Program-made: the position numbers and the translations under genes
The notes under the pieces: generated by a model
Told to the model about the DNA's origin: nothing
The model's input: the letters and a program-made list of their open reading frames with translations, nothing else
Databases searched by the model: none
DNA from: Gammaproteobacteria bacterium
Lineage (GTDB): Bacteria; Pseudomonadota; Gammaproteobacteria; GCA-001735895
Length of the DNA: 64,000 nucleotides
Direction of reading: 5' to 3'
Assembly: GCA_050118655.1 (NCBI GenBank)
Contig: JASFKL010000001.1
Span: 186-64,185, forward strand
Shown here: piece by piece, positions 4,618 to 26,470 of the stretch
How positions within the stretch are numbered: position 1 is the stretch's first letter
How the letters are laid out: every line of letters begins with the position of its first letter

Positions 4618-5673
4618 ATGAGCCTTGAAATTGATCCCAAACAAATAAAATCCTTCTCTCCGATCAATTCTCTGAATCCAGAAAACGCTCAAGAATTAGT
4701 CAACAAAATTACCGCTACCCCGATCCAGGCGGGCCACTATATCTTCAAGAAAGGTGATATGGACAAGGCGCACGTCTACGTGCTCTCGGGCGAAGTGGAG
4801 CTGGTGCAGGACAAAAAGGTGGTCAAGACCATCAAGGCGGGCTCCCCGGAAGGCATGCAACCGCTGGCGCACGGATTTCCCCGGCCGGTGTCGGCGCGCG
4901 CCAAGGTCGCCTCGGTGGTCACCAAGATCAACAGCGACATGCTCGACATCATGCTGACCTGGGACCAGTCGGGCAGTTACTCGGTAGAACCCGTCGACGA
5001 AGAAGACGAAGAAACCGACTGGATGACCCGCATCCTGCAAACCCGGGCCTTCCATCGCATTCCGCCGGCCAATATCCAGGCGATGTTCATGCGCATGGAA
5101 TCGGTCAGCTTCAAGCCCGGCGAGAAAGTGATCGAACAGGATGCCGAGGGCGATTATTTCTACATCATCAAGGAAGGCCGTTGCCTGGTCACCCGCTCCA
5201 CGCCGGCCAACCCGAATGGCGTCAAGCTGGCGACCCTGTCGGTGGGCGACAGTTTCGGCGAGGAAGCGCTGATCTCCGACAGCAAGCGCAACGCGACGAT
5301 CACGATGCTGTCCGAGGGGCATTTGATGCGCCTCAACAAGGAGGATTTCAACTCGCTGCTGAACGAACCGCTGCTCAACTGGGTCGATTACGACGAGGCC
5401 AGGAAACTGGTCGATGCGGGCGCCGTCTGGTTCGACGTACGCCTGCCTACCGAGCACAAGGCCAAGCACATCAAGGGCAGTATCAATATCCCGCTGATTT
5501 TCCTGCGCATGAAGGCCAATTCGCTCGATACCGAAAAGAAATACGTCATCTATTGCGATACCGGCCGGCGCAGCTCCGCGGCCTCTTTTCTACTCAACGA
5601 AAAGGATATCGAGACCTTCGTATTGCGCGACGGCGTCGATACCGCCGAGCCCTCCGACCTGGTTACCAGCTAA
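4618..5673 (+). CDS. Tandem cyclic-nucleotide-binding (CAP-ED) domains fused to a C-terminal rhodanese domain with catalytic Cys (CDTGRRS)
   Basis: Two cNMP-binding cores (YIFKKGDMDKAHVYVLSGEVELV... and YFYIIKEGRCLV...VGDSFGEEALI with the hallmark FGEEAL); rhodanese motif VWFDVRLPTEH...YVIYCDTGRRSSAAS. Confidence 0.8.
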   Translation: MSLEIDPKQIKSFSPINSLNPENAQELVNKITATPIQAGHYIFKKGDMDKAHVYVLSGEVELVQDKKVVKTIKAGSPEGMQPLAHGFPRPVSARAKVASVVTKINSDMLDIMLTWDQSGSYSVEPVDEEDEETDWMTRILQTRAFHRIPPANIQAMFMRMESVSFKPGEKVIEQDAEGDYFYIIKEGRCLVTRSTPANPNGVKLATLSVGDSFGEEALISDSKRNATITMLSEGHLMRLNKEDFNSLLNEPLLNWVDYDEARKLVDAGAVWFDVRLPTEHKAKHIKGSINIPLIFLRMKANSLDTEKKYVIYCDTGRRSSAASFLLNEKDIETFVLRDGVDTAEPSDLVTS

Positions 5674-5702: not shown

Positions 5703-7307
5703 TCAGCCGGCGTAGCCCGGGATTAGCGATTCGTCTATTTCGTCGATCTGCTCCGGATCGAGAAACTCCTCGGCGTAGTCGAGGTAAACCCGCTCGCGAA
5801 TGAAGATCTCGAAGATATCGGGATCGATGTGATTGTCCTTTTTCATGAATCCCATGATGCGCAGGCACTCGGACAGTTTCTTGCCATGCTTGTATGGCCG
5901 ATCGCTGGCGGTCAGGGCCTCGAAAATATCGGCCACCGCCATAATCCGGGCCTGTACCGACATTTCCTCCCTTTTGAGCCCGCGCGGGTATCCCGTGCCA
6001 TCCATTTTTTCATGATGTCCGCCGGCATACTCGGGTACGTTTTGCAAATTGCGGGGAAACGGCAGCGATTCCAGCATCTTGATGGTCGCGACGATATGGT
6101 TGTTGATGACTTCCCGCTCTTCATCGTTCAGCGTGCCGCGCTTGATACACAGGTTCATGACCTCGTCGTCGGTCAAAAGCGGCCGCGTCTCGCCGGACCC
6201 GTCCACCCATTCGAGCCCGGCGAGTTGCTTTACCCGGTCGATATCCTCGTCGCTCATGAATTCGCCGCCGACATTGGCCTTGCGCAAAAATTCGAAATCC
6301 TGCCGGTATTGCTCGCGACGGGATTCGAGATCCCTGTCCAGTTGTTCGACATCGGCCTTCGATCCGTTTGCCGCTAGACGTTTTTTCAAGTATTCGATTT
6401 CGGCGTCGCGCTGCAGGATCACGAAACGGGTTTCCAGCGCATTGATACGATCGTAAATCGTTTCCAGCTTGGTGGCCTTGTCCATCACGTACTCGGGGGT
6501 AACCACCTTGCCGCAATCGTGCAACCAGGCAGCGGTCTCGAGTTCGTAGCGATCCTTGTCGGTAATTCTGAAATCCTTCAGCGGCCCCTTGTCGTCCTGG
6601 TGCGCGGCCTCGGCAAGCATCATCGTCAATACCGGAATCCGCCGGCAATGACCGCCGGTATAGGGCGACTTGTCGTCGATCGCCGAGGCGATCATGCGGA
6701 TAAAAGATTCGAACAGGATTTGCAGTTCCGAGATCAGTCTCCGCTGGGTCAGCGCGACGGCTGCCTGGGAAGCCAGTGACTCGGCGAGTTGCTGTTCGAC
6801 GGCGCTGAAAACTTTGACCTCGCCGGTTTGCTCGTTCCTGGCATTGATCAATTGCAGCACGCCGATGATTTCCTTCTCGTGGTCCTTGAGCGGAAAGGTC
6901 AGCATGGAGCGGGTGCGGTAACCGGTCTTTTCGTCGAAGGCCCGCGTGCCCGAGAAATCGAAGCCGTCCTCGTTATAGGCGTCGGCAATGTTGATGGTTT
7001 CTCCGGACAGTACGCAGTGGGAGACGACGTTGGCATGGTTATCCTTGCCTTCGATCGACAGCGGTATCGCCGGAAAAGTGATTTCGTTACCCGAGGTACC
7101 GCCCATCTGTATATCGAGCGAATCGTTGGAAATGATCTCGAATCTGAGTTCGCCGTCGTTCAGAAAATACAGCGAGCCGCCATCCGCGTGGGTGAGCGAT
7201 TTTGCTCCCATCATGATCAGCTCGAGCAGCTTGGGCGTATCGTTTTCCGCCGACAGCGCGATGCCGATTTCATTTAACCGATCAATCCTGTCGAGCAATT
7301 CTGACAT
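5703..7307 (-). CDS. GAF-domain / HD-GYP-domain phosphodiesterase (probable c-di-GMP-specific)
   Basis: N-terminal GAF-like fold; HD motif AAWLHDCGKVVTPEY and GYP motif GGHHEKMDGTGYPRGL. Confidence 0.85.
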   Translation of the reverse strand: MSELLDRIDRLNEIGIALSAENDTPKLLELIMMGAKSLTHADGGSLYFLNDGELRFEIISNDSLDIQMGGTSGNEITFPAIPLSIEGKDNHANVVSHCVLSGETINIADAYNEDGFDFSGTRAFDEKTGYRTRSMLTFPLKDHEKEIIGVLQLINARNEQTGEVKVFSAVEQQLAESLASQAAVALTQRRLISELQILFESFIRMIASAIDDKSPYTGGHCRRIPVLTMMLAEAAHQDDKGPLKDFRITDKDRYELETAAWLHDCGKVVTPEYVMDKATKLETIYDRINALETRFVILQRDAEIEYLKKRLAANGSKADVEQLDRDLESRREQYRQDFEFLRKANVGGEFMSDEDIDRVKQLAGLEWVDGSGETRPLLTDDEVMNLCIKRGTLNDEEREVINNHIVATIKMLESLPFPRNLQNVPEYAGGHHEKMDGTGYPRGLKREEMSVQARIMAVADIFEALTASDRPYKHGKKLSECLRIMGFMKKDNHIDPDIFEIFIRERVYLDYAEEFLDPEQIDEIDESLIPGYAG

Positions 7308-7400
7308 CTACTGGCACCTGCCCCTCGCGGAGGCCGAGCTACGCGAGCTTCGAAAGTCGCTCTATTCTAGGTGAATCCCCGGGCATTTCAATTCCGGGCC

Positions 7401-7416
7401 GGTTAAATTTTTAACC
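7401..7416. promoter_or_regulatory. Inverted repeat GGTTAAA-TT-TTTAACC in the divergent promoter region between the HD-GYP gene and the CHASE2 kinase operon
   Basis: 7-bp perfect arms with 2-bp spacer, seen directly in an AT-rich 327-bp intergenic region. Confidence 0.3.
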
Positions 7417-7634
7417 CCAAGCACTGGTAAAAAAGCGCATTCAACCTTATAGTTTAGAGGCATCACGATTCATAAGAATACCGGGGGGGATCCAAGCTGT
7501 TAACCAGTTCAAGGTGTTCGCATAAACTATTGAATATTATACGAATCGGATTTCTTCATTTTCCGGTCGCACACCCAGTAAAGTACGACTATAACAAGCT
7601 GGGTGACTAATAAGAATCAAACTATGGAGACGGT

Positions 7635-10265
7635 ATGAAAACCCGTTTTTGGAGTAGCGACTGGTTCGCCGGGCTGCTGATTACCATCGTGATTGTGGCG
7701 GTCTCGGGTTCCGGCCCCTTCCAAAGCCTGGAGCGCTCGTTTTACGACTGGGGCGTGCGCTCGACCGACAGGACTCCCTCCGACAAGATTGCGATCATCG
7801 CCATCGACGACGAGAGTATCGACAACCTGGGCCGCTGGCCCTGGCCGCGCGACCTCCACGCCGAATTGATCAACCGGCTTTCCGAGGGCGGAGCCAAGGT
7901 CATCGGTCAAACCGTATTTTTCCTCGAACCCCAGGTCGATCCGGGGTTGACCTATATCCGCGAACTGATCGAGTTTTTCTCTACCGCGAGCTTCGGCGAC
8001 GTTCCCGCCGATATCGATGCGCTGGGCGCGATGCTGGAACTGGGCGGCAACAATCGCAAGATAAACGATATCCTCGAATTCTATCTCCAATCGAGCCTGA
8101 ATACGCGTCTCAACCAGGATATCGAAACCCTGAAATCCCGAATGTTCGAAGCCGAGCAGGCGCTCAACACCGACGCCAAGCTCGCCGAGAGCATGGAAAA
8201 AGCCAAGAACGTCGTGCTGGCGATGGTCTTTTACCTGGGCATCCCGCGCGGCAAGCCCGACGAGGAACTGCCCGACTACGTGCTGAAAAACTCGATCAGC
8301 CAGATCCGTGACCGCGTATCGGCACAACCCAACGGCCTGTTCCCGATTCCGACCATCGATGCGCTGACACCGATTCCGGAAATCGGCCGCTACGCGGCGG
8401 CGATCGGCCATCTCAATACCCTGCCCGATATCGACGGCGGGGTTCGTTCAGAGCCGCTGGTGCTGCAGTACTACGACCGCTTCTTCCCGTCGATATCGCT
8501 GCAAATCGCCGCGCGCAGCCTGAACCTCGACACCAACGACATCCGCGTCAATCTGGCGGAGAGCGTCGAACTCGGCAGTCTGGCAATCAAGACCGATACC
8601 CAGCTGCAGATGAATACCTTTTACTACTCGAATCGCGATGGTTTTCCGGCATTTCCGGTGGATTCGTTTTACGACGTATTCACCGGCAAGATTCCGATCG
8701 AAAAGTATCGCGGCAAGATCGTTTTGATCGGCCCCACCGCCACCGGCGTCGGTACGCCGCAGGTCACTCCCATCGATCCCGCAATGGCGCCGGTACTGAC
8801 GCTCGCACACTCGGTTTCGAGCATCCTCAAGGAGGATTTTTTCATCGAGCCCGAATGGGGCTTCTGGGCGCGCATGGGTACCTTCCTCGTGGTTGCGCTC
8901 TACCTGATGCTGCTGATGCCGCGGTTAAAGGCCGGTGTCGCTTTCGTGGTCACCACGGTGCTGGTGCTGGCACTGATCGCCACCCATTACATACTGATGA
9001 CCGGCAGCACGATGTGGATTCAGTTGATGACCCCGGGGGCCCTGCTGGTGATCGGTTACCTGTTGATCACCACCAAGAGATTCCTGGTCACCGAGCGCGG
9101 CAAGGCCAAATCCGACGTGGAATCGGCCGAGAGCAACCGGATGCTGGGTATCGCATTTCAAACCCAGGGTCAACTCGACATGGCGTTCGAAAAATTCCGC
9201 AAGTGCAGCCCGGTCGACGAACAGGTGCTCGAGGCGATGTACAACCTGGCGCTGGATTTCGAGCGCAAGCGGCAATTCAACAAGGCCACTTCGGTGTACC
9301 AGTACATGGCCAAGCACGACAAGAGCTTCCGTGATATCGAAACCCGTATGAACCGCGCGCAGAAGATGGAAGAAACCGTCATGCTCGGCGGTAGCGGCGG
9401 ACATGCGGGCGGCACCCTGCTGCTCGATGGCAGCGGTGTCGAAAAACCGATGCTGGGCCGTTACGAAGTCGAAAAGGAACTCGGCAAGGGCGCCATGGGT
9501 ATCGTCTACCTGGGCAAGGACCCCAAGATCAGCCGGGTCGTGGCGATCAAGACCATGGCCCTGGCGCAGGAGTTCGAAGCCGACGAACTCGACGAGGTCA
9601 AGGAGCGGTTCTTCCGCGAGGCGGAAACCGCGGGGCGCCTGAATCATCCCAATATCGTAACCATTTACGATGCCGGCGAGGAGCACGATCTCGCCTATAT
9701 CGCGATGGAATTTCTCAAGGGCTACGACCTTACGAAACACTGCAAGCCCGATAACCTGCTGGAAATGAATACCGTGGTCAGCATCGTCCAGCGCGCCGCC
9801 GAGGGCCTCGATTTCGCGCACCGGCAAAACGTCGTGCACCGCGATATCAAGCCGGCCAACATCATGTACGAGCCGGAATCGGATACCATCAAGATTACCG
9901 ATTTCGGTATCGCGAGAATTACCGATTCGAGCAAGACCAAGACCGGGATGGTACTCGGCACGCCCTCTTACATGTCTCCCGAACAACTGGCGGGCAAAAA
10001 AGTCGATGGACGTTCCGACCTGTTTTCACTCGGCGTCATGCTTTACCAGATGCTTTGCGGATCCCTGCCCTTCAAGGCGGATTCGATGGCCAGTCTGATG
10101 TTCAAGATCACCAACGAAGAGGCCCCGGACATTCGCAGCGTGCGCGAGGATATACCCCATGGCCTGGTCGAAGTAATCGCCTTGGCCATGACCAAGGATG
10201 CCGACCAGCGATATCAGACAGGAGCCGATTTTGCCAATGCATTGAAAGCATTTCTGAATAATTGA
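7635..10265 (+). CDS. CHASE2 sensor domain - transmembrane - TPR-like linker - Hanks-type Ser/Thr protein kinase
   Basis: CHASE2 signature IIAIDDESIDNLGRWPWPRDLHAELI; hydrophobic helices around residues 410-470; kinase motifs LGKGAMGIVY, HRDIKPANIM, DFGIA, GTPSYMSPE; RBS GGAGA upstream of the ATG. Confidence 0.85.
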   Translation: MKTRFWSSDWFAGLLITIVIVAVSGSGPFQSLERSFYDWGVRSTDRTPSDKIAIIAIDDESIDNLGRWPWPRDLHAELINRLSEGGAKVIGQTVFFLEPQVDPGLTYIRELIEFFSTASFGDVPADIDALGAMLELGGNNRKINDILEFYLQSSLNTRLNQDIETLKSRMFEAEQALNTDAKLAESMEKAKNVVLAMVFYLGIPRGKPDEELPDYVLKNSISQIRDRVSAQPNGLFPIPTIDALTPIPEIGRYAAAIGHLNTLPDIDGGVRSEPLVLQYYDRFFPSISLQIAARSLNLDTNDIRVNLAESVELGSLAIKTDTQLQMNTFYYSNRDGFPAFPVDSFYDVFTGKIPIEKYRGKIVLIGPTATGVGTPQVTPIDPAMAPVLTLAHSVSSILKEDFFIEPEWGFWARMGTFLVVALYLMLLMPRLKAGVAFVVTTVLVLALIATHYILMTGSTMWIQLMTPGALLVIGYLLITTKRFLVTERGKAKSDVESAESNRMLGIAFQTQGQLDMAFEKFRKCSPVDEQVLEAMYNLALDFERKRQFNKATSVYQYMAKHDKSFRDIETRMNRAQKMEETVMLGGSGGHAGGTLLLDGSGVEKPMLGRYEVEKELGKGAMGIVYLGKDPKISRVVAIKTMALAQEFEADELDEVKERFFREAETAGRLNHPNIVTIYDAGEEHDLAYIAMEFLKGYDLTKHCKPDNLLEMNTVVSIVQRAAEGLDFAHRQNVVHRDIKPANIMYEPESDTIKITDFGIARITDSSKTKTGMVLGTPSYMSPEQLAGKKVDGRSDLFSLGVMLYQMLCGSLPFKADSMASLMFKITNEEAPDIRSVREDIPHGLVEVIALAMTKDADQRYQTGADFANALKAFLNN

Positions 10266-10279
10266 GCCCAGACTGTTTG

Positions 10280-11104
10280 ATGAATTTGCAAAACAAGATA
10301 ACCATCCAGGGCCTGACTGACACGGGGATAGTGCGCGGCAAGAACGAGGACGCGATCGGTTATGACAGCGCGCTGGGTCTCGTGGTTCTCGCCGATGGCA
10401 TGGGAGGTCATCGCGGCGGCGAAATAGCCAGCAGTATGACCGTCGATACGGTTATCAATCTCCTGCAGCAGCGGCTGCCGGAAATCAACTCCGGCGACGT
10501 CGACGAAGCCAGTGGATTTTCGATGGAGTCGATTTGTATCCAGGATGCCGTGGTCGCGGCCAACGAACTGGTCTACAAGACCGCCGAGGCCAATCCCGAA
10601 CACAAGGGAATGGGCACCACGATCGTGGTATTGCAGTTCTACAACAATTCCTTCTCCCTCGCCCATATCGGCGACTCGCGCTGTTATCGTCTGCGCAATG
10701 ACAAGCTCGAACAGATTACCAAGGATCACTCCCTGTTACAGGAACTCATCGACCGCGGCTTCTATACGCCCGAAGAAGCGCGCAATTCGATGAACAAGAA
10801 TCTCGTGACGCGTGCCCTGGGCATCGATCCGATCGTCATGCCGGACATACAGGAGGATATAGTCCTGAAAAATGACATATATTTGCTATGTTCAGATGGG
10901 TTAACGGATTTAGTCGAAGACGAAGATATATACTTAACTATTAAGCAATTTAGTGCTAATCTAGAAGAAGCTGCCAAGCAATTGATTACAAAGGCAAACC
11001 AGAATGGCGGAAAGGATAATATTTCGGTAATGCTGTGCCGGATTGACGATGATTTTTCGTCCCGGCAAGGCTGGTTCAACAAGATTGTCGGCTGGTTCGA
11101 CTAA
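10280..11104 (+). CDS. PP2C-family Ser/Thr protein phosphatase
   Basis: GLTDTGIVRGKNEDA...VLADGMGGHRGGEIAS...LLCSDGLTD; the track ORF starts at TTG 10262, but the ATG at 10280 is preferred; immediately downstream of the kinase stop (10265), within 4 nt of it in the TTG model. Confidence 0.85.
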   Translation: MNLQNKITIQGLTDTGIVRGKNEDAIGYDSALGLVVLADGMGGHRGGEIASSMTVDTVINLLQQRLPEINSGDVDEASGFSMESICIQDAVVAANELVYKTAEANPEHKGMGTTIVVLQFYNNSFSLAHIGDSRCYRLRNDKLEQITKDHSLLQELIDRGFYTPEEARNSMNKNLVTRALGIDPIVMPDIQEDIVLKNDIYLLCSDGLTDLVEDEDIYLTIKQFSANLEEAAKQLITKANQNGGKDNISVMLCRIDDDFSSRQGWFNKIVGWFD

Positions 11105-11150
11105 CGGATTACACACCCAGTACAAACTACTCTACAGGCTGGATAATAAA

Positions 11151-11873
11151 ATGGTCGCAAAACTGATCACTACTTCAAGCACGGGCGAAAAAACCGAGTA
11201 TGAACTGGTCAATGAAACCACCACGATTGGGCGTAAGCCGGGTAACGATATTCAAATCGATAATCTGTCAGTCAGCGGCAGGCATGCGCAGGTAATCACC
11301 ATCCTCGAAGATTCATTTCTGGAAGATCTCGGCAGCACCAACGGCACTTACGTCAACGGCAAACTGGTAAAAAAACACGCGCTCGAAGACGGCGACAGTA
11401 TCACCCTGGGCAAGTATCAAATCACCTACCAGAATAACTCCGGCGGCGGTGAACAGGATTTCGAACAAACCATGATTATCCGCCCCGGCGAAGCGGGCAT
11501 GCCCGAAGAAGCCGGCAGCAAGGAAATCGACAAGTCGGTGCAAAAAATTTCAGCGGCGATCGCCTCGGAGGCAGCCAGCACAGCCTCGTCGCCGATGTCT
11601 AACAAGGAAGCCTGCCTGCAATTGCTCAGCGGCGCCAACGCCGGCAAGGAGCTGGTATTGACCAAGGCCCTGACCACCATCGGCCAGCCGGGTGTGCAGG
11701 TGGCGGCGATCACCCGCCGTCCGCAAGGCTTTTTCCTGATTCACGTCGATGGCGGCCCGAACAACAATGTCCCGAAAGTCGGCGGCTCGGAGATCGGCTC
11801 GAACGCGCACGAACTCAAGAGCCACGACATTATCGAAGTAGCCGGCGTAAAAATGGAGTTCTACCTCAAATAA
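11151..11873 (+). CDS. FHA-domain protein (phospho-Thr reader); second half is FHA-like
   Basis: TTIGRKPGNDIQIDNLSVSGRHAQV...STNGTYVNGKLV is an FHA core; start chosen at MVAKL (11151), after the PP2C stop at 11104. Confidence 0.75.
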   Translation: MVAKLITTSSTGEKTEYELVNETTTIGRKPGNDIQIDNLSVSGRHAQVITILEDSFLEDLGSTNGTYVNGKLVKKHALEDGDSITLGKYQITYQNNSGGGEQDFEQTMIIRPGEAGMPEEAGSKEIDKSVQKISAAIASEAASTASSPMSNKEACLQLLSGANAGKELVLTKALTTIGQPGVQVAAITRRPQGFFLIHVDGGPNNNVPKVGGSEIGSNAHELKSHDIIEVAGVKMEFYLK

Positions 11874-11913
11874 AGCCGTTCCTGCTCGTCCGCATTGAAA
11901 CCGGGGGCAAACA

Positions 11914-14145
11914 ATGCAATTACAGCGCATAGTCAGGCTGGTGCTTAGCGCACTGATCCTGCTGGTCATCCTGCTCGACACCTCCGGAGTTTACAAGTAT
12001 CCATTCATCAAGCAGCTGGAAAACTGGACTTACGACGCGCGGCTGAACTTTACCCGTCCCGATACCGTCGACGATCGCGTGGTTATCGTCGATATCGACG
12101 AAACCTCGCTCGCCGAGGTCGGCCGCTGGCCCTGGGGTCGCGACCAGCTCGCGCGCATCGTCGACAACCTGTTCGACTTTTACGGGGCCGACGTGGTCGC
12201 CTTCGATATCGTATTCGCCGAAAAAGACGAGAGCTCCGGACTGGAACAGTTCGAGCAGCTGGCGCGAACCACGTTGCGCGGCGACGAGGAATATATCGAG
12301 GCGCTCGATAAGATCCGGCCGAGCCTCAAACACGACGAAATTTTCGCGCAGAGCCTGGTCGGTAAAAACGTCGTTCTCGGCTATTACTTCAAGTCCAGGT
12401 TGCAGGAAGGAGAAAGCGGTGTCACCGGCCTCCTGCCCCCCGCATTGACCAGGATGGACAGGCAGTGGAGCGAACGCCTGCCGATCAACAAGGCGGTAGG
12501 CTACGGCGGCAACCTGGAAATACTGCAAACCTCGGCACGCTCCGGCGGCTACTTCGACAACCCCTTCGTCGATGCCGACGGCGTATTTCGCCGCGTGCCG
12601 CTGGTGCAGTCCTACCAGGGCTACCTGTTCGCCTCGCTGGCTCTCGCCACTACCCAGGCGTATCTCGACGCCGACGGTATCGAGCTGGCGATCGAAACCG
12701 AGGGAACGCGCGGCGAGAACGAATATTTCGCGCTGGAGACGATTAACCTGAAGAATCACAAGATTCCCGTGGACGCCAACGGCGCGGTGTTCGTGCCCTA
12801 CCGCGGCAGGCAGGGAAGCTTTCCCTATATCCCCGCCCACGAAGTGCTGAGCCGCAAGACCAACCCGCTGGCGCTAAAGAACAAGATCGTACTGATCGGC
12901 ACCTCGGCACCGGGCCTGCTCGACCTGCGCTCTACTCCAGTACAAAACATTTATCCCGGGGTCGAGGTCCATGCCAATATCATTTCCGGCATCCTCGACG
13001 ATCGTATCAAGCACAAGCCGGCCTGGACGGTGGGTTACGAACTCGTGTTACTGATAGTCATCGCGGTCAGCATGGCCTTGCTGTTGCCGCTGGTTTCGCC
13101 GCTGCTGGCGGCGACCGGGACGCTCGGGATTACCGGCCTGGTGGTCGCCGGAACCTTCGTCGCCTGGAACAACAACCTGATCCTGCCGCTGGCGAGCCCG
13201 CTGCTGCTGATTCTGTTGCTGTTCATGCTGCACATGTCCTACGGATTCTTCATCGAGTCCCGTGGCAAGCGGCAGCTCGCTAACCTGTTCGGGCACTACA
13301 TACCGCCCGAACTGGTCGACGAGATGAGCGAATCGCCCGAGGAATATTCGCTCGAGGGCGAGAACCGTGAAATGACCGTGCTGTTTTCGGACGTGCGCGG
13401 ATTCACGTCGATCTCGGAAGGCATGGACCCGAAACAGTTGACCCAGCTCATGAACGCGCTGTTGACGCCGATGACGCGCGTCATCCACAAGAACCGGGGT
13501 ACGATAGACAAGTACATGGGAGATGCCATCATGGCCTTCTGGGGCGCGCCGCTGGCCAATGCCGAGCATGCCCGGCACGCGCTCTATGCCGCACTCCAGA
13601 TGATGGAAGAACTGAAGATAATGCAGGAAGACTTCAAGCAACGCGGCTGGCCGACGGTCAACATCGGTATCGGCTTGAACACCGGCGACATGAACGTCGG
13701 CAACATGGGATCGGAATTCCGCATGGCTTATACCGTGCTCGGCGACGCGGTCAACCTGGGTTCGAGGCTCGAGGGCCTGACCAAGGAATACGGCGTCAAC
13801 ATCATCGTCAGCGAATCCACCAAGGCGGCGATACCCGAATTCGTATTCCGAGAACTCGACCTGGTCAGGGTGAAAGGCAAGAACGAACCGGTCGCAATTT
13901 TCGAACCGGTCGGGCACAAAAACGATCTCGACAAGTCGGTCACCTCGGAGATCAGCGAATACCGCAAGGCATTGATGAACTTTCGCTCCCAGTCCTGGGA
14001 CAAGGCCGAGCTCGATTTCTTCAACCTCAACCGCATCAACCCGGACCGGCAGCTATACCAGGTCTACCTCGAACGTATCGCGGTCTACCGCAGGGAGCCG
14101 CCCGGAGAGGGCTGGGACGGCGTTTTTACGCACACCACGAAGTAA
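11914..14145 (+). CDS. CHASE2 sensor domain - transmembrane - class III nucleotidyl cyclase (probable adenylate cyclase)
   Basis: CHASE2 signature VVIVDIDETSLAEVGRWPWGRDQLARIV; TM segments around residues 365-440; cyclase core MTVLFSDVRGFTSISE...TIDKYMGDAIMAFWGAP...YTVLGDAVNLGSRLE with Lys in KxxGD. Confidence 0.85.
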   Translation: MQLQRIVRLVLSALILLVILLDTSGVYKYPFIKQLENWTYDARLNFTRPDTVDDRVVIVDIDETSLAEVGRWPWGRDQLARIVDNLFDFYGADVVAFDIVFAEKDESSGLEQFEQLARTTLRGDEEYIEALDKIRPSLKHDEIFAQSLVGKNVVLGYYFKSRLQEGESGVTGLLPPALTRMDRQWSERLPINKAVGYGGNLEILQTSARSGGYFDNPFVDADGVFRRVPLVQSYQGYLFASLALATTQAYLDADGIELAIETEGTRGENEYFALETINLKNHKIPVDANGAVFVPYRGRQGSFPYIPAHEVLSRKTNPLALKNKIVLIGTSAPGLLDLRSTPVQNIYPGVEVHANIISGILDDRIKHKPAWTVGYELVLLIVIAVSMALLLPLVSPLLAATGTLGITGLVVAGTFVAWNNNLILPLASPLLLILLLFMLHMSYGFFIESRGKRQLANLFGHYIPPELVDEMSESPEEYSLEGENREMTVLFSDVRGFTSISEGMDPKQLTQLMNALLTPMTRVIHKNRGTIDKYMGDAIMAFWGAPLANAEHARHALYAALQMMEELKIMQEDFKQRGWPTVNIGIGLNTGDMNVGNMGSEFRMAYTVLGDAVNLGSRLEGLTKEYGVNIIVSESTKAAIPEFVFRELDLVRVKGKNEPVAIFEPVGHKNDLDKSVTSEISEYRKALMNFRSQSWDKAELDFFNLNRINPDRQLYQVYLERIAVYRREPPGEGWDGVFTHTTK

Positions 14146-18865: not shown

Positions 18866-18942
18866 TGGCGGAGTGGACGGGACTCGAACCCGCGACCCCC
18901 GGCGTGACAGGCCGGTATTCTAACCAACTGAACTACCACTCC
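18866..18942 (-). tRNA. tRNA-Asp (GTC)
   Basis: Manual fold: 77 nt, anticodon loop cuGUCac, 3' CCA encoded; near-identical to E. coli tRNA-Asp. Confidence 0.85.
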
Positions 18943-18950
18943 AGATTAGG

Positions 18951-19026
18951 TGGTGGGTGCTGACGGGATCGAACCGCCGACCCTCGCCTTGTAAGGGCGA
19001 TGCTCTCCCAGCTGAGCTAAGCACCC
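18951..19026 (-). tRNA. tRNA-Val (TAC)
   Basis: Manual fold: 76 nt, anticodon loop cuUACaa, 3' CCA encoded; close to E. coli tRNA-Val(UAC). Confidence 0.85.
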
Positions 19027-25705: not shown

Positions 25706-25791
25706 TGGTGCGAAAGGAGAGACTCGAACTCTCACATCGTAAAGATACCAGAACCTAAATCTGGCGCGTCTACCAATTCCGCCACTTTCGC
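25706..25791 (-). tRNA. tRNA-Leu (TAG)
   Basis: Manual fold: 86 nt with long variable arm, begins GCGAAAGTGGCGGAATTGGTAGACGC, anticodon loop uuUAGgu, CCA encoded. Confidence 0.8.
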
Positions 25792-25892
25792 AGTCGTTTC
25801 GTGCCTGCCTGATTACCGGACGCCGTGCCGCGCTCCGCGTCGCCGCGCGGAGTCGAAAACTAACGGCGCCTGCATCGCAGGCGCCGTGTGTA

Positions 25893-25969
25893 TGGGGTGG
25901 ACGATGGGGATCGAACCCACGACAACAAGAATCACAATCTTGCACTCTACCAACTGAGCTACGCCCACC
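25893..25969 (-). tRNA. tRNA-His (GTG)
   Basis: Manual fold: 77 nt including the -1 G, anticodon loop uuGUGau, ends ...CCACCCCA as in E. coli tRNA-His. Confidence 0.85.
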
Positions 25970-25975
25970 ATAATT

Positions 25976-26052
25976 TGGCACGCCCGGCAGGATTCGAACC
26001 TGCTACCCTCGGCTTAGAAGGCCGATGCTCTATCCAAATGAGCTACGGGCGC
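25976..26052 (-). tRNA. tRNA-Arg (TCT)
   Basis: Manual fold: 77 nt, anticodon loop cuUCUaa, CCA encoded. Confidence 0.83.
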
Positions 26053-26055
26053 TTC

Positions 26056-26195
26056 GGATACCTCTCTCACGGCGTATTTTAGCCGATTGCTGCGTTGCCG
26101 CCGTGCTCGGATCCTCATGTATGTCTTTATACACTGCGGTCCTGCGCGCGGCGGCGCCTTGCACTCAACTAAAATACGCCGTGAGAGAGGCATCC
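26056..26195. repeat. About 140-bp element bounded by 27-bp terminal inverted repeats (1 mismatch; 22-bp perfect core CCTCTCTCACGGCGTATTTTAG / CTAAAATACGCCGTGAGAGAGG) with a nested inner IR; MITE-like or large RNA hairpin in the tRNA operon spacer
   Basis: Perfect 22-bp IR at 26061-26082 vs 26169-26190 seen directly; inner IR GCCGCCGTGC / GCGCGGCGGC; abuts the 5' end of tRNA-Arg. Confidence 0.6.
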
Positions 26196-26393
26196 TCCAG
26201 TTCAAATTCCGACCGGTCATCCTAAACCTTTTGTATCCCCGGATTGCCGCCGTAGGGGAGGCAACCTGGATTCGTCTTGCCGGCGATAATTCCATTAATA
26301 TACGCGCCAATCGCGTATTCGGATGCCGGGAACCTGCCGTTTCCTCGAACCCCCGATATCCGGGGTGCAATGATAGCAAATTCCCGACAAAAT

Positions 26394-26470
26394 TGGTCGG
26401 GGTGGAGAGATTCGAACTCCCGACCCACTGCTCCCAAAGCAGTTGCGCTACCAGGCTGCGCTACACCCCG
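26394..26470 (-). tRNA. tRNA-Pro (TGG)
   Basis: Manual fold: 77 nt, anticodon loop uuUGGga, CCA encoded. Confidence 0.85.

Follow-up and report, generated by a model that had tools for sequence, protein, structure and literature searches.

A GAF–HD-GYP protein as the candidate output of a local cyclic AMP module in a gammaproteobacterium

In the 64,000-nucleotide stretch of contig JASFKL010000001.1 analysed here (called the window below), which comes from a Gammaproteobacteria bacterium, a gene for a GAF–HD-GYP protein is divergent from a cluster of genes ending in a CHASE2 nucleotide cyclase, and a perfect palindrome lies between the two gene sets. The locus raises the question of whether the product of the cyclase governs the HD-GYP protein, and whether the palindrome is a control site shared by both sides. 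Cyclic AMP (cAMP) control of cyclic di-GMP (c-di-GMP) hydrolysis is our best reading of the domain sequences, of a predicted fold, and of gene order in distant genomes, and it has a precedent in a protein from a cyanobacterium. For the locus as a whole, we lean towards a model in which a cytoplasmic GAF–HD-GYP phosphodiesterase is the output of a local cAMP module and the palindrome is an UP-like A/T tract between back-to-back promoters.

In this model, the CHASE2 adenylate cyclase encoded at the end of the divergent cluster would produce cAMP, and the CHASE2 Ser/Thr kinase, PP2C phosphatase, and FHA protein encoded in the same cluster would probably tune its activity. The N-terminal GAF domain of the HD-GYP protein would bind cAMP; the signal would pass through a long connecting helix and alter, whether up or down, the hydrolysis of c-di-GMP by the HD-GYP domain. 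Tlr0485 from Thermosynechococcus vulcanus, a GAF–HD-GYP protein described as a c-di-GMP phosphodiesterase activated by cAMP at its GAF domain (Enomoto et al. 2020, as cited in PMC8846402, PMC10124867, and bioRxiv 10.1101/2021.11.05.467447), is the precedent for such a path. A neighbouring protein with domains for binding cyclic nucleoside monophosphates (cNMPs) and a rhodanese domain would be a second likely cAMP receptor, and both gene sets would be read from back-to-back promoters. An earlier note on this DNA had proposed that the product of the neighbouring cyclase could regulate c-di-GMP hydrolysis, and this proposal is supported by a GAF domain of the cNMP type, by adenylate-cyclase residues in the cyclase, by gene order, and by the Tlr0485 precedent.

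Domain layout, GAF ligand, and gene neighbourhood

The HD-GYP gene (5703-7307, minus strand) encodes 534 amino acids according to the open reading frame list, its translation, and Pfam matches to GAF and HD_5; the protein is called in identical form on six metagenome contigs. The N-terminal GAF domain and the HD-GYP domain that the earlier note described are both present. In Pfam searches, GAF matches residues 26-186 (5e-12), and residues 381-498 match the C-terminal part of HD_5/HD (1.6e-44). The translation contains WLHDCGK as well as GGHHEKMDGTGYP (residues 429-441), which carries the GYP motif of the HHExxDGxGYP type. To compare the protein with its relatives, we assembled a family set of 154 distinct sequences (51-100% identity) and scored invariant columns in 86 of its members, in all of which the GYP motif is kept.

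Together with an alignment to PmGH, the HD-GYP protein of Persephonella marina (PDB 4MCW/4MDZ), these matches divide the protein into four parts, all on the minus strand. The GAF domain spans residues about 23-186 (6750-7241; Pfam GAF, GAF_2, and GAF_3). The N-terminal half of the HD-GYP domain, with H220, H263-D264, and K267, spans residues about 200-276 (6480-6710; PmGH alignment up to GKxxxP). An insertion of about 110 amino acids follows at residues 277-386 (6150-6479; PmGH alignment), and the C-terminal half, with H404, H431-H432, G439-Y440-P441, D460, and R470..K473, covers residues 387-505 (5793-6149; Pfam HD_5 positions 58-170, PmGH alignment, and invariant columns). An AlphaFold2 model built from 86 homologues (mean predicted local distance difference test score 86) has the order GAF, connecting helix (residues 169-213), HD-GYP. 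In a Foldseek search against the PDB, the top match of this model was PmGH (E value 1.6e-19, TM score 0.71 on the target). The family has no model of its own in NCBIfam.

The GAF domain is supported, by sequence and predicted fold, as one of the cNMP-binding type. When the domain alone was compared with PDB sequences using phmmer, GAF-A of PDE5 ranked first (2.6e-20), followed by GAF-B of PDE2 and by CyaB2. The Foldseek matches that come after PmGH are likewise cNMP-binding GAF domains: PDE2A, PDE5A, CyaB2, PDE10A, PDE6, and Lcd1 with cAMP.

The gene at 11914-14145 (plus strand; Pfam CHASE2 and Guanylate_cyc) encodes a class III nucleotide cyclase that is predicted to be adenylate-cyclase-like. 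The best PDB match of its catalytic domain is CyaB of Pseudomonas aeruginosa (1.4e-35). Substrate choice in class III cyclases is set by two positions, with Lys plus Asp/Thr in adenylate cyclases and Glu plus Cys/Gly in guanylate cyclases. Here, as in CyaB, these residues are Lys (in GTIDKYMGD) and Thr (in AYTVLG), whereas Glu and Gly occupy them in Cya2, a CHASE2 guanylate cyclase. Because both positions are of the CyaB type, cAMP is the expected product.

Relatives of the HD-GYP protein number at least 584 among species-representative genomes and at least 578 in metagenomes; the closest named genome among the matches listed is the Olavius algarvensis Gamma 3 endosymbiont (82% identity). A clade of uncultured marine Gammaproteobacteria keeps an mltD-like gene, the cNMP-rhodanese gene, the HD-GYP gene, and the divergent kinase–PP2C–FHA–cyclase cluster. 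We judged synteny in those loci of the clade whose flanks extend far enough, and all of them were syntenic. The cNMP-rhodanese gene adjoins the HD-GYP gene across the clade and in five other loci, L025 among them.

Orthologues with 54-58% identity and the same insertion share a strand with an adjoining CHASE2 adenylate cyclase gene in Catenovulum, Marinifaba, Gayadomonas, Algicola, Pseudoalteromonas viridis, Rheinheimera, and Burkholderiaceae; about 10 to about 185 nt separate the two genes. The catalytic domains of these cyclases show 49-62% identity. The Lys/Thr pair is kept in 14 of them; the fifteenth (L142), whose match ends at the end of the contig, shows the Lys only. In Alteromonadales the order is a gene for a metallo-beta-lactamase-fold (MBL) hydrolase, the cyclase gene, and the HD-GYP gene (ten loci), and in Burkholderiaceae or Burkholderiaceae-like genomes it is the MBL gene, the HD-GYP gene, and the cyclase gene (four loci). 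Three different gene orders tie the GAF–HD-GYP family to cAMP synthesis.

The Burkholderiaceae MBL protein scores above the Pfam cut-off for class-II cAMP phosphodiesterases (PDEase_II; 52.7 versus 23.7 bits). The Alteromonadales MBL protein has weak matches among PDB sequences (RNase Z and BA1088) and only the generic Lactamase_B_2 model in Pfam; its assignment as a cNMP phosphodiesterase rests on a tblastn match of 24-27% to the Burkholderiaceae MBL gene region. With a dedicated cAMP phosphodiesterase homologue alongside, the HD-GYP protein is more plausibly an effector than a degrader of cAMP. In three further loci, one of which (L114) has two copies, an MBL gene precedes the orthologue and there is no cyclase gene; the window itself holds no MBL homologue. 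In five alphaproteobacterial loci, a gene for a cNMP-gated ion channel (Ion_trans and cNMP_binding) adjoins the orthologue.

Two observations weigh against cAMP as the ligand of the GAF domain. The GAF domains closest to it in sequence, from PDE5 and PDE2, bind cGMP, yet the cyclase looks specific for cAMP, so ligand specificity is not readable from similarity. Moreover, we detected no cNMP gene in the sequence flanking the orthologue at about 100 of some 170 retrieved loci, whose conserved neighbours are housekeeping genes (htpG, for example); the association of the family with cAMP is therefore recurrent and not universal. These loci, which make up the majority of the retrieved orthologues, would also fit a GAF domain that senses a ligand other than cAMP or cGMP, or none, the HD-GYP protein then being linked to the cyclase only through co-expression or through acting upstream of it. 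GAF domains do accept many ligands, and that of the PmGH GAF domain is unknown. We nevertheless consider this explanation unlikely, since cNMP binders lead the GAF matches after PmGH in both structure and sequence, and since three gene arrangements link the family to adenylate cyclases and two more to other cNMP proteins.

Catalytic residues, insertion, and predicted substrate

Seven of the eight metal ligands of PmGH are present in the HD-GYP protein of the window: H189, H221, D222, H250, H276, H277, and D305 of PmGH align with H220, H263-D264, H404, H431-H432, and D460. These seven core ligands, the GYP motif, and an RxxK motif are invariant in the family (86-154 members). K267 (corresponding to PmGH K225) and R470-P-Y-K473 (corresponding to PmGH R314/K317) are invariant in the 86 scored members. 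In PmGH, R314 and K317 contact guanine. Rxx(K/R) is the mark of guanine recognition in HD-GYP proteins specific for c-di-GMP, and Rxx(Q/N) is the signature of those specific for cyclic GMP-AMP (cGAMP). The invariant RxxK therefore predicts c-di-GMP, and not cGAMP, as the substrate. The earlier note had offered cGAMP as an alternative substrate. This alternative is not supported by the c-di-GMP-type R470-P-Y-K473, and we rejected specificity for cGAMP on the invariant RxxK and the absence of RxxQ/N.

Several features of the catalytic domain point away from an enzyme of the PmGH type. Tyr216 stands at the position of the PmGH metal ligand Glu185, in a Y216-T-G triplet that is invariant in the family, so the protein lacks the E/D-T-G triplet that supplies the bridging carboxylate in the trinuclear PmGH subgroup. 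Of the catalytic pair D183/K225 of PmGH, K225 aligns with K267, and D183 with an invariant Ser214. Asp211, three residues upstream of Ser214, is also invariant and might stand in for Asp183. Ser214 and Tyr216 both belong to an invariant DxKSPYTGGH stretch (residues 211-220, nt 6648-6677). Finally, the 110-residue insertion divides the catalytic domain. The two pieces of the PmGH alignment meet at position 239 of the PmGH chain, which places the inserted residues directly after GKxxxP. The insertion was found in all 154 family sequences; neither PmGH nor the Pfam HD_5 model contains it. In the AlphaFold2 model it consists of long helices at residues 277-312 and 317-344, then a helix, a small beta hairpin, and another helix; it is thus mostly a long predicted helical hairpin, and it is bordered by two copies of a motif resembling K.(G/T)KL..E. 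Taken together, Ser214, Tyr216, and the insertion mean that activity or substrate could differ from the PmGH type.

The replacement of Glu185 by Tyr216 assigns the protein to the Tyr/Phe subgroup. This is a large recognised branch of HD-GYP proteins, predicted to be without the bridging carboxylate (Bellini et al.). Its existence bears on the alternative that the enzyme does not hydrolyse c-di-GMP at all and acts instead on cGAMP, pGpG, or the cNMP made by the cyclase, or serves as an inert receptor. The two substitutions, the divided catalytic domain, and the lack of a named NCBIfam family would all suit such a protein. It seems improbable to us, however, given that the seven metal ligands, K267, the GYP motif, and the guanine-binding RxxK are all invariant, that the cGAMP signature is absent, and that a tyrosine at the Glu185 position is already familiar from a whole branch. 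Degradation of cAMP would be redundant in the operons that encode a separate homologue of class-II cAMP phosphodiesterases, and nine loci have a gene for a GGDEF protein no more than two genes from the orthologue. A motif search of the 64-kb window found no GGDEF gene. Hydrolysis of c-di-GMP remains the activity that we would predict.

The divergent promoters and the palindrome

The intergenic region between the HD-GYP gene and the divergent kinase gene (7308-7634) has the 327 bp and the AT-richness reported in the earlier note; its G+C content is 46%, whereas the flanking genes have 56-58% and the window as a whole has 60%. The inverted repeat GGTTAAATTTTTAACC at 7401-7416 is likewise exact, with perfect 7-nt arms (GGTTAAA and TTTAACC) separated by TT, and it is the only copy in the window at up to two mismatches. 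The further claim of that note, that the repeat is a plausible site of a dimeric regulator, found little support: in 24 of 28 orthologous regions the arms are not conserved, CRP and FNR sites are not matched, and only the A/T core is kept. From the sequence, the palindrome most likely serves one promoter or both as an UP-like or curved A/T tract, not as a conserved operator. On this reading, which is the most economical one, its dyad symmetry would be a side effect of acting in both directions or an addition specific to the lineage.

A consensus scan predicted a sigma-70-like promoter for the HD-GYP gene at 7364-7391 (minus strand), TTGAAA-16-TAGAAT, with 10 of 12 consensus matches. Both hexamers are retained in about two thirds of the orthologous regions, namely those of the closer relatives. 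Transcription is predicted to start near 7357, giving a leader of 50 nt. The scan returned a second minus-strand promoter, TTAACA-17-TATTCT, which we rejected as its -10 hexamer is not conserved in relatives.

On the plus strand, a 32-bp element at 7422-7453, CACTGGTAAAAA-N8-CAACCTTATAGT, recurs in 28 distinct orthologous intergenic regions, always with 8 nt between its two boxes. It is recognisable even where nothing else aligns, it holds most of the invariant columns of the intergenic alignment, and it is far better conserved than the palindrome. Read as a promoter, it has TGGTAA (7425-7430), 17 nt, and TATAGT (7448-7453), a canonical spacing with an invariant -10-like hexamer. We read the element as the probable promoter for the kinase–phosphatase–FHA–cyclase genes, whose transcripts would start at about 7460. 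The -35 box speaks less well for this assignment, as TGGTAA agrees with the consensus at only three of six positions, and a protein-binding site could explain instead why it is so strictly conserved. A box that is weak and nevertheless invariant may indicate an unknown additional factor or an alternative sigma factor. Sigma-54 was rejected as an explanation of the CTGGTAA/CTGGCAA box: there is no GC dinucleotide at the needed spacing, and the spacer is not conserved. A search of the window for further copies of CTGGTAA-N17-TATAGT gave 10 loose matches, where 2.5 were expected, none of them convincing.

The -35 hexamers of the two predicted promoters are 33 bp apart, and the palindrome, which spans -44 to -59 of each promoter, is centred exactly midway. 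In sigma-70 promoters, the zone of UP elements is A/T-rich and extends from about -40 to -60. The palindrome's position fits this zone on both sides, and the UP consensus is matched in part only. What the 28 distinct regions share is an A5/T5 tract whose distance from the -35-like box is constant, and not the arms of the palindrome. At the aligned position, the window has seven of seven base pairs, L006, L013, and L091 have six of seven with other arm sequences, and the 24 other regions have at most four.

The palindrome might also be without function, a chance dyad in AT-rich promoter DNA. The window is rich in perfect inverted repeats with 7-nt arms (94 with spacers of 0-10 nt, 12 with a spacer of 2 nt), and dinucleotide shuffles of the 327-bp region contained a repeat with a spacer of 2 nt in 2.4% of cases and with any spacer of 0-10 nt in 17%, so the palindrome is only marginally above chance. 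The outer arm positions have already diverged in the closest relatives, whose proteins are 94% and 92% identical: the two outer pairs are lost and the inner five to six pairs kept. We hold pure chance to be a minority possibility, however, as the A/T tract keeps its fixed distance from the 7422-7453 element across the whole clade, and as the centre of the dyad coincides with the midpoint of both promoters.

Some selection for symmetry, which would count against a simple A/T tract, is favoured by the recurrence of dyads with six or seven of seven pairs in four of the 28 regions and by a compensatory change. In L170, pair 3/14 has changed from T-A to C-G, a single such event. The distant locus L025 adds a perfect and related dyad, GGGTAAATATTTACCC, at an unaligned position upstream of its HD-GYP gene. 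An operator for a dimeric transcription factor, possibly cAMP-responsive, that co-regulates both promoters in this lineage would account for these observations, for the inner pairs kept in the closest relatives, and for the placement of a perfect 7-2-7 dyad exactly between the two -35 hexamers. At least six of seven pairs were found at the aligned position in 18% of orthologues, compared to 1.6% of shuffles; this shuffle null, however, ignores the conserved AAA..TTT core, which provides three pairs for free. The variation of the arm sequences between loci would be intolerable for a sequence-specific protein, most orthologues form at most four pairs, and 64 kb of sequence contain no second copy. 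The GGTTA/TAACC half-sites agree with CRP at two of five positions, and neither TGTGA-N6-TCACA nor TTGAT-N4-ATCAA is matched. In class I and class II CRP promoters, a centre at about -51.5, where the palindrome lies with respect to both predicted promoters, is not a usual activator position. The conserved cluster includes no transcription-factor gene. For these reasons an operator appears doubtful, and we retain the UP-like or curved A/T tract as the most likely role.

We compared the palindrome and the conserved boxes by eye with the consensus sequences of CRP, FNR, NtcA, CpxR, and IHF and found no convincing fit. The consensus for Fis is GnnYAwwwwwTRnnC; the palindrome of the window fits it with one mismatch, that of the closest relative, L170, does not, and Fis was rejected.

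A search of the intergenic region against Rfam at E values up to 10 returned only meaningless matches to snoRNAs and lncRNAs, and no riboswitch or known RNA. The predicted leaders fold no better than shuffled sequences (z = -0.8 and +1.6). The predicted leader of the kinase operon contains a hairpin, CACCCAG...CTGGGTG (7572-7606, plus strand), about 28 nt before the start codon and followed by the conserved CTAATAATAA. When the kinase leaders of relatives were folded as single sequences, four of them (L006, L007, L009, and L012) had a hairpin at the same place with different but complementary stems. A block at 7490-7545, which includes CAAGCTGTTAACCAGTTCAAGG and CTATTGAATATTATACG, is conserved in closer relatives only; it contains a third GGTTAA/TTAACC half-site (7500-7505) and, on the minus strand, a perfect TATAAT without a matching -35 hexamer.

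The divergent gene is indeed a CHASE2 gene, as the earlier note had it; the gene nearest to the HD-GYP gene, however, encodes the kinase, and the cyclase is the fourth gene, 4.3 kb away. The cluster, on the plus strand, consists of a CHASE2 Ser/Thr protein kinase (7635-10265; Pfam CHASE2 5e-51, Pkinase 2.7e-56), a PP2C-type protein phosphatase (10280-11104; Pfam PP2C, with the start of the gene called on the identical contig L001), an FHA-domain protein (11151-11873; Pfam FHA 1.7e-21, also called on L001), and the cyclase. Within 7635-14145, the PP2C and FHA genes thus lie between genes for two distinct CHASE2 receptors, a Ser/Thr kinase fusion and an adenylate cyclase fusion. Between the four genes there is no intrinsic terminator and no promoter-like site, and they therefore probably form one operon. 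The literature that we searched contained no description of this kinase–PP2C–FHA–cyclase cluster or of cyclase/HD-GYP operons.

On the other side, the cNMP-rhodanese gene (4618-5673, plus strand; Pfam cNMP_binding twice and Rhodanese) is convergent with the HD-GYP gene, and 29 bp separate the two stop codons. Its product has an unusual effector architecture for which NCBIfam has no named family, and the second cNMP domain is 81-98% identical within the clade. Elsewhere in the window are tRNA clusters for Asp-Val (18866-19026) and for Leu-His-Arg plus Pro (25706-26470, minus strand), which are unrelated to the HD-GYP gene.

Implications and relation to known systems

If the model is correct, the locus is a compact example of cross-talk, in which an extracytoplasmic signal sensed by CHASE2 would change cAMP and, through it, c-di-GMP. 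The subfamily is large, uncharacterised, and recurrent beside adenylate cyclases and homologues of cAMP phosphodiesterases, so that one biochemical study could supply annotations for hundreds of genes across marine Gammaproteobacteria, Alteromonadales, and Burkholderiaceae. In the promoter region, the better conserved 7422-7453 element deserves attention ahead of the palindrome. A more far-reaching proposal, that the insertion-bearing subfamily is the output of a widespread and undescribed cAMP module of CHASE2 cyclase and MBL phosphodiesterase, perhaps with non-classical chemistry or substrate and with the AT-rich dyad perhaps a shared control element in this lineage, is one that we regard as a long shot.

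The principle of cAMP acting on cyclic-dinucleotide enzymes is known from Tlr0485, Bd1971, and Lcd1, and the gain here would therefore lie in breadth and mechanistic detail, not in a new concept. Tlr0485 has the same two-domain architecture and the logic, proposed here, that leads from cAMP to c-di-GMP. The papers cited for it above mention no conserved cyclase neighbourhood. In Bd1971 (a cNMP-binding domain with EAL), Lcd1 (GAF with GGDEF), and GacB (GAF with Hypr GGDEF), cAMP controls a cyclic-dinucleotide enzyme. These proteins, too, fuse a cNMP sensor to such an enzyme; however, their catalytic domains differ from HD-GYP, and none has been reported in an operon with a CHASE2 cyclase.

PmGH, a c-di-GMP phosphodiesterase, is the archetype of the recognised GAF–long helix–HD-GYP layout and the best sequence match (6.8e-36), and it has in common with the protein of the window the seven metal ligands, the GYP motif, and RxxK. 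The two are only 23% identical, though, and PmGH has no 110-residue insertion and has Glu185 and Asp183 where the window protein has Tyr216 and Ser214. The GAF domain shares with GAF-A of PDE5 the pattern DAY..D.RF...D..TGY[KR]T.S.L..P...H..E..GV.Q.IN, within which the window protein has a four-residue insertion; the GAF domains of PDE5, PDE2, PDE6, PDE10, and CyaB2 are joined to unrelated catalytic domains. As for the palindrome, operators of the CRP/FNR type are also dyads in divergent promoter regions, but they differ from it in their half-sites and in the conservation of their arms, and UP elements are likewise AT-rich and occupy the zone in which it lies relative to the two predicted promoters, with a consensus that it matches in part.

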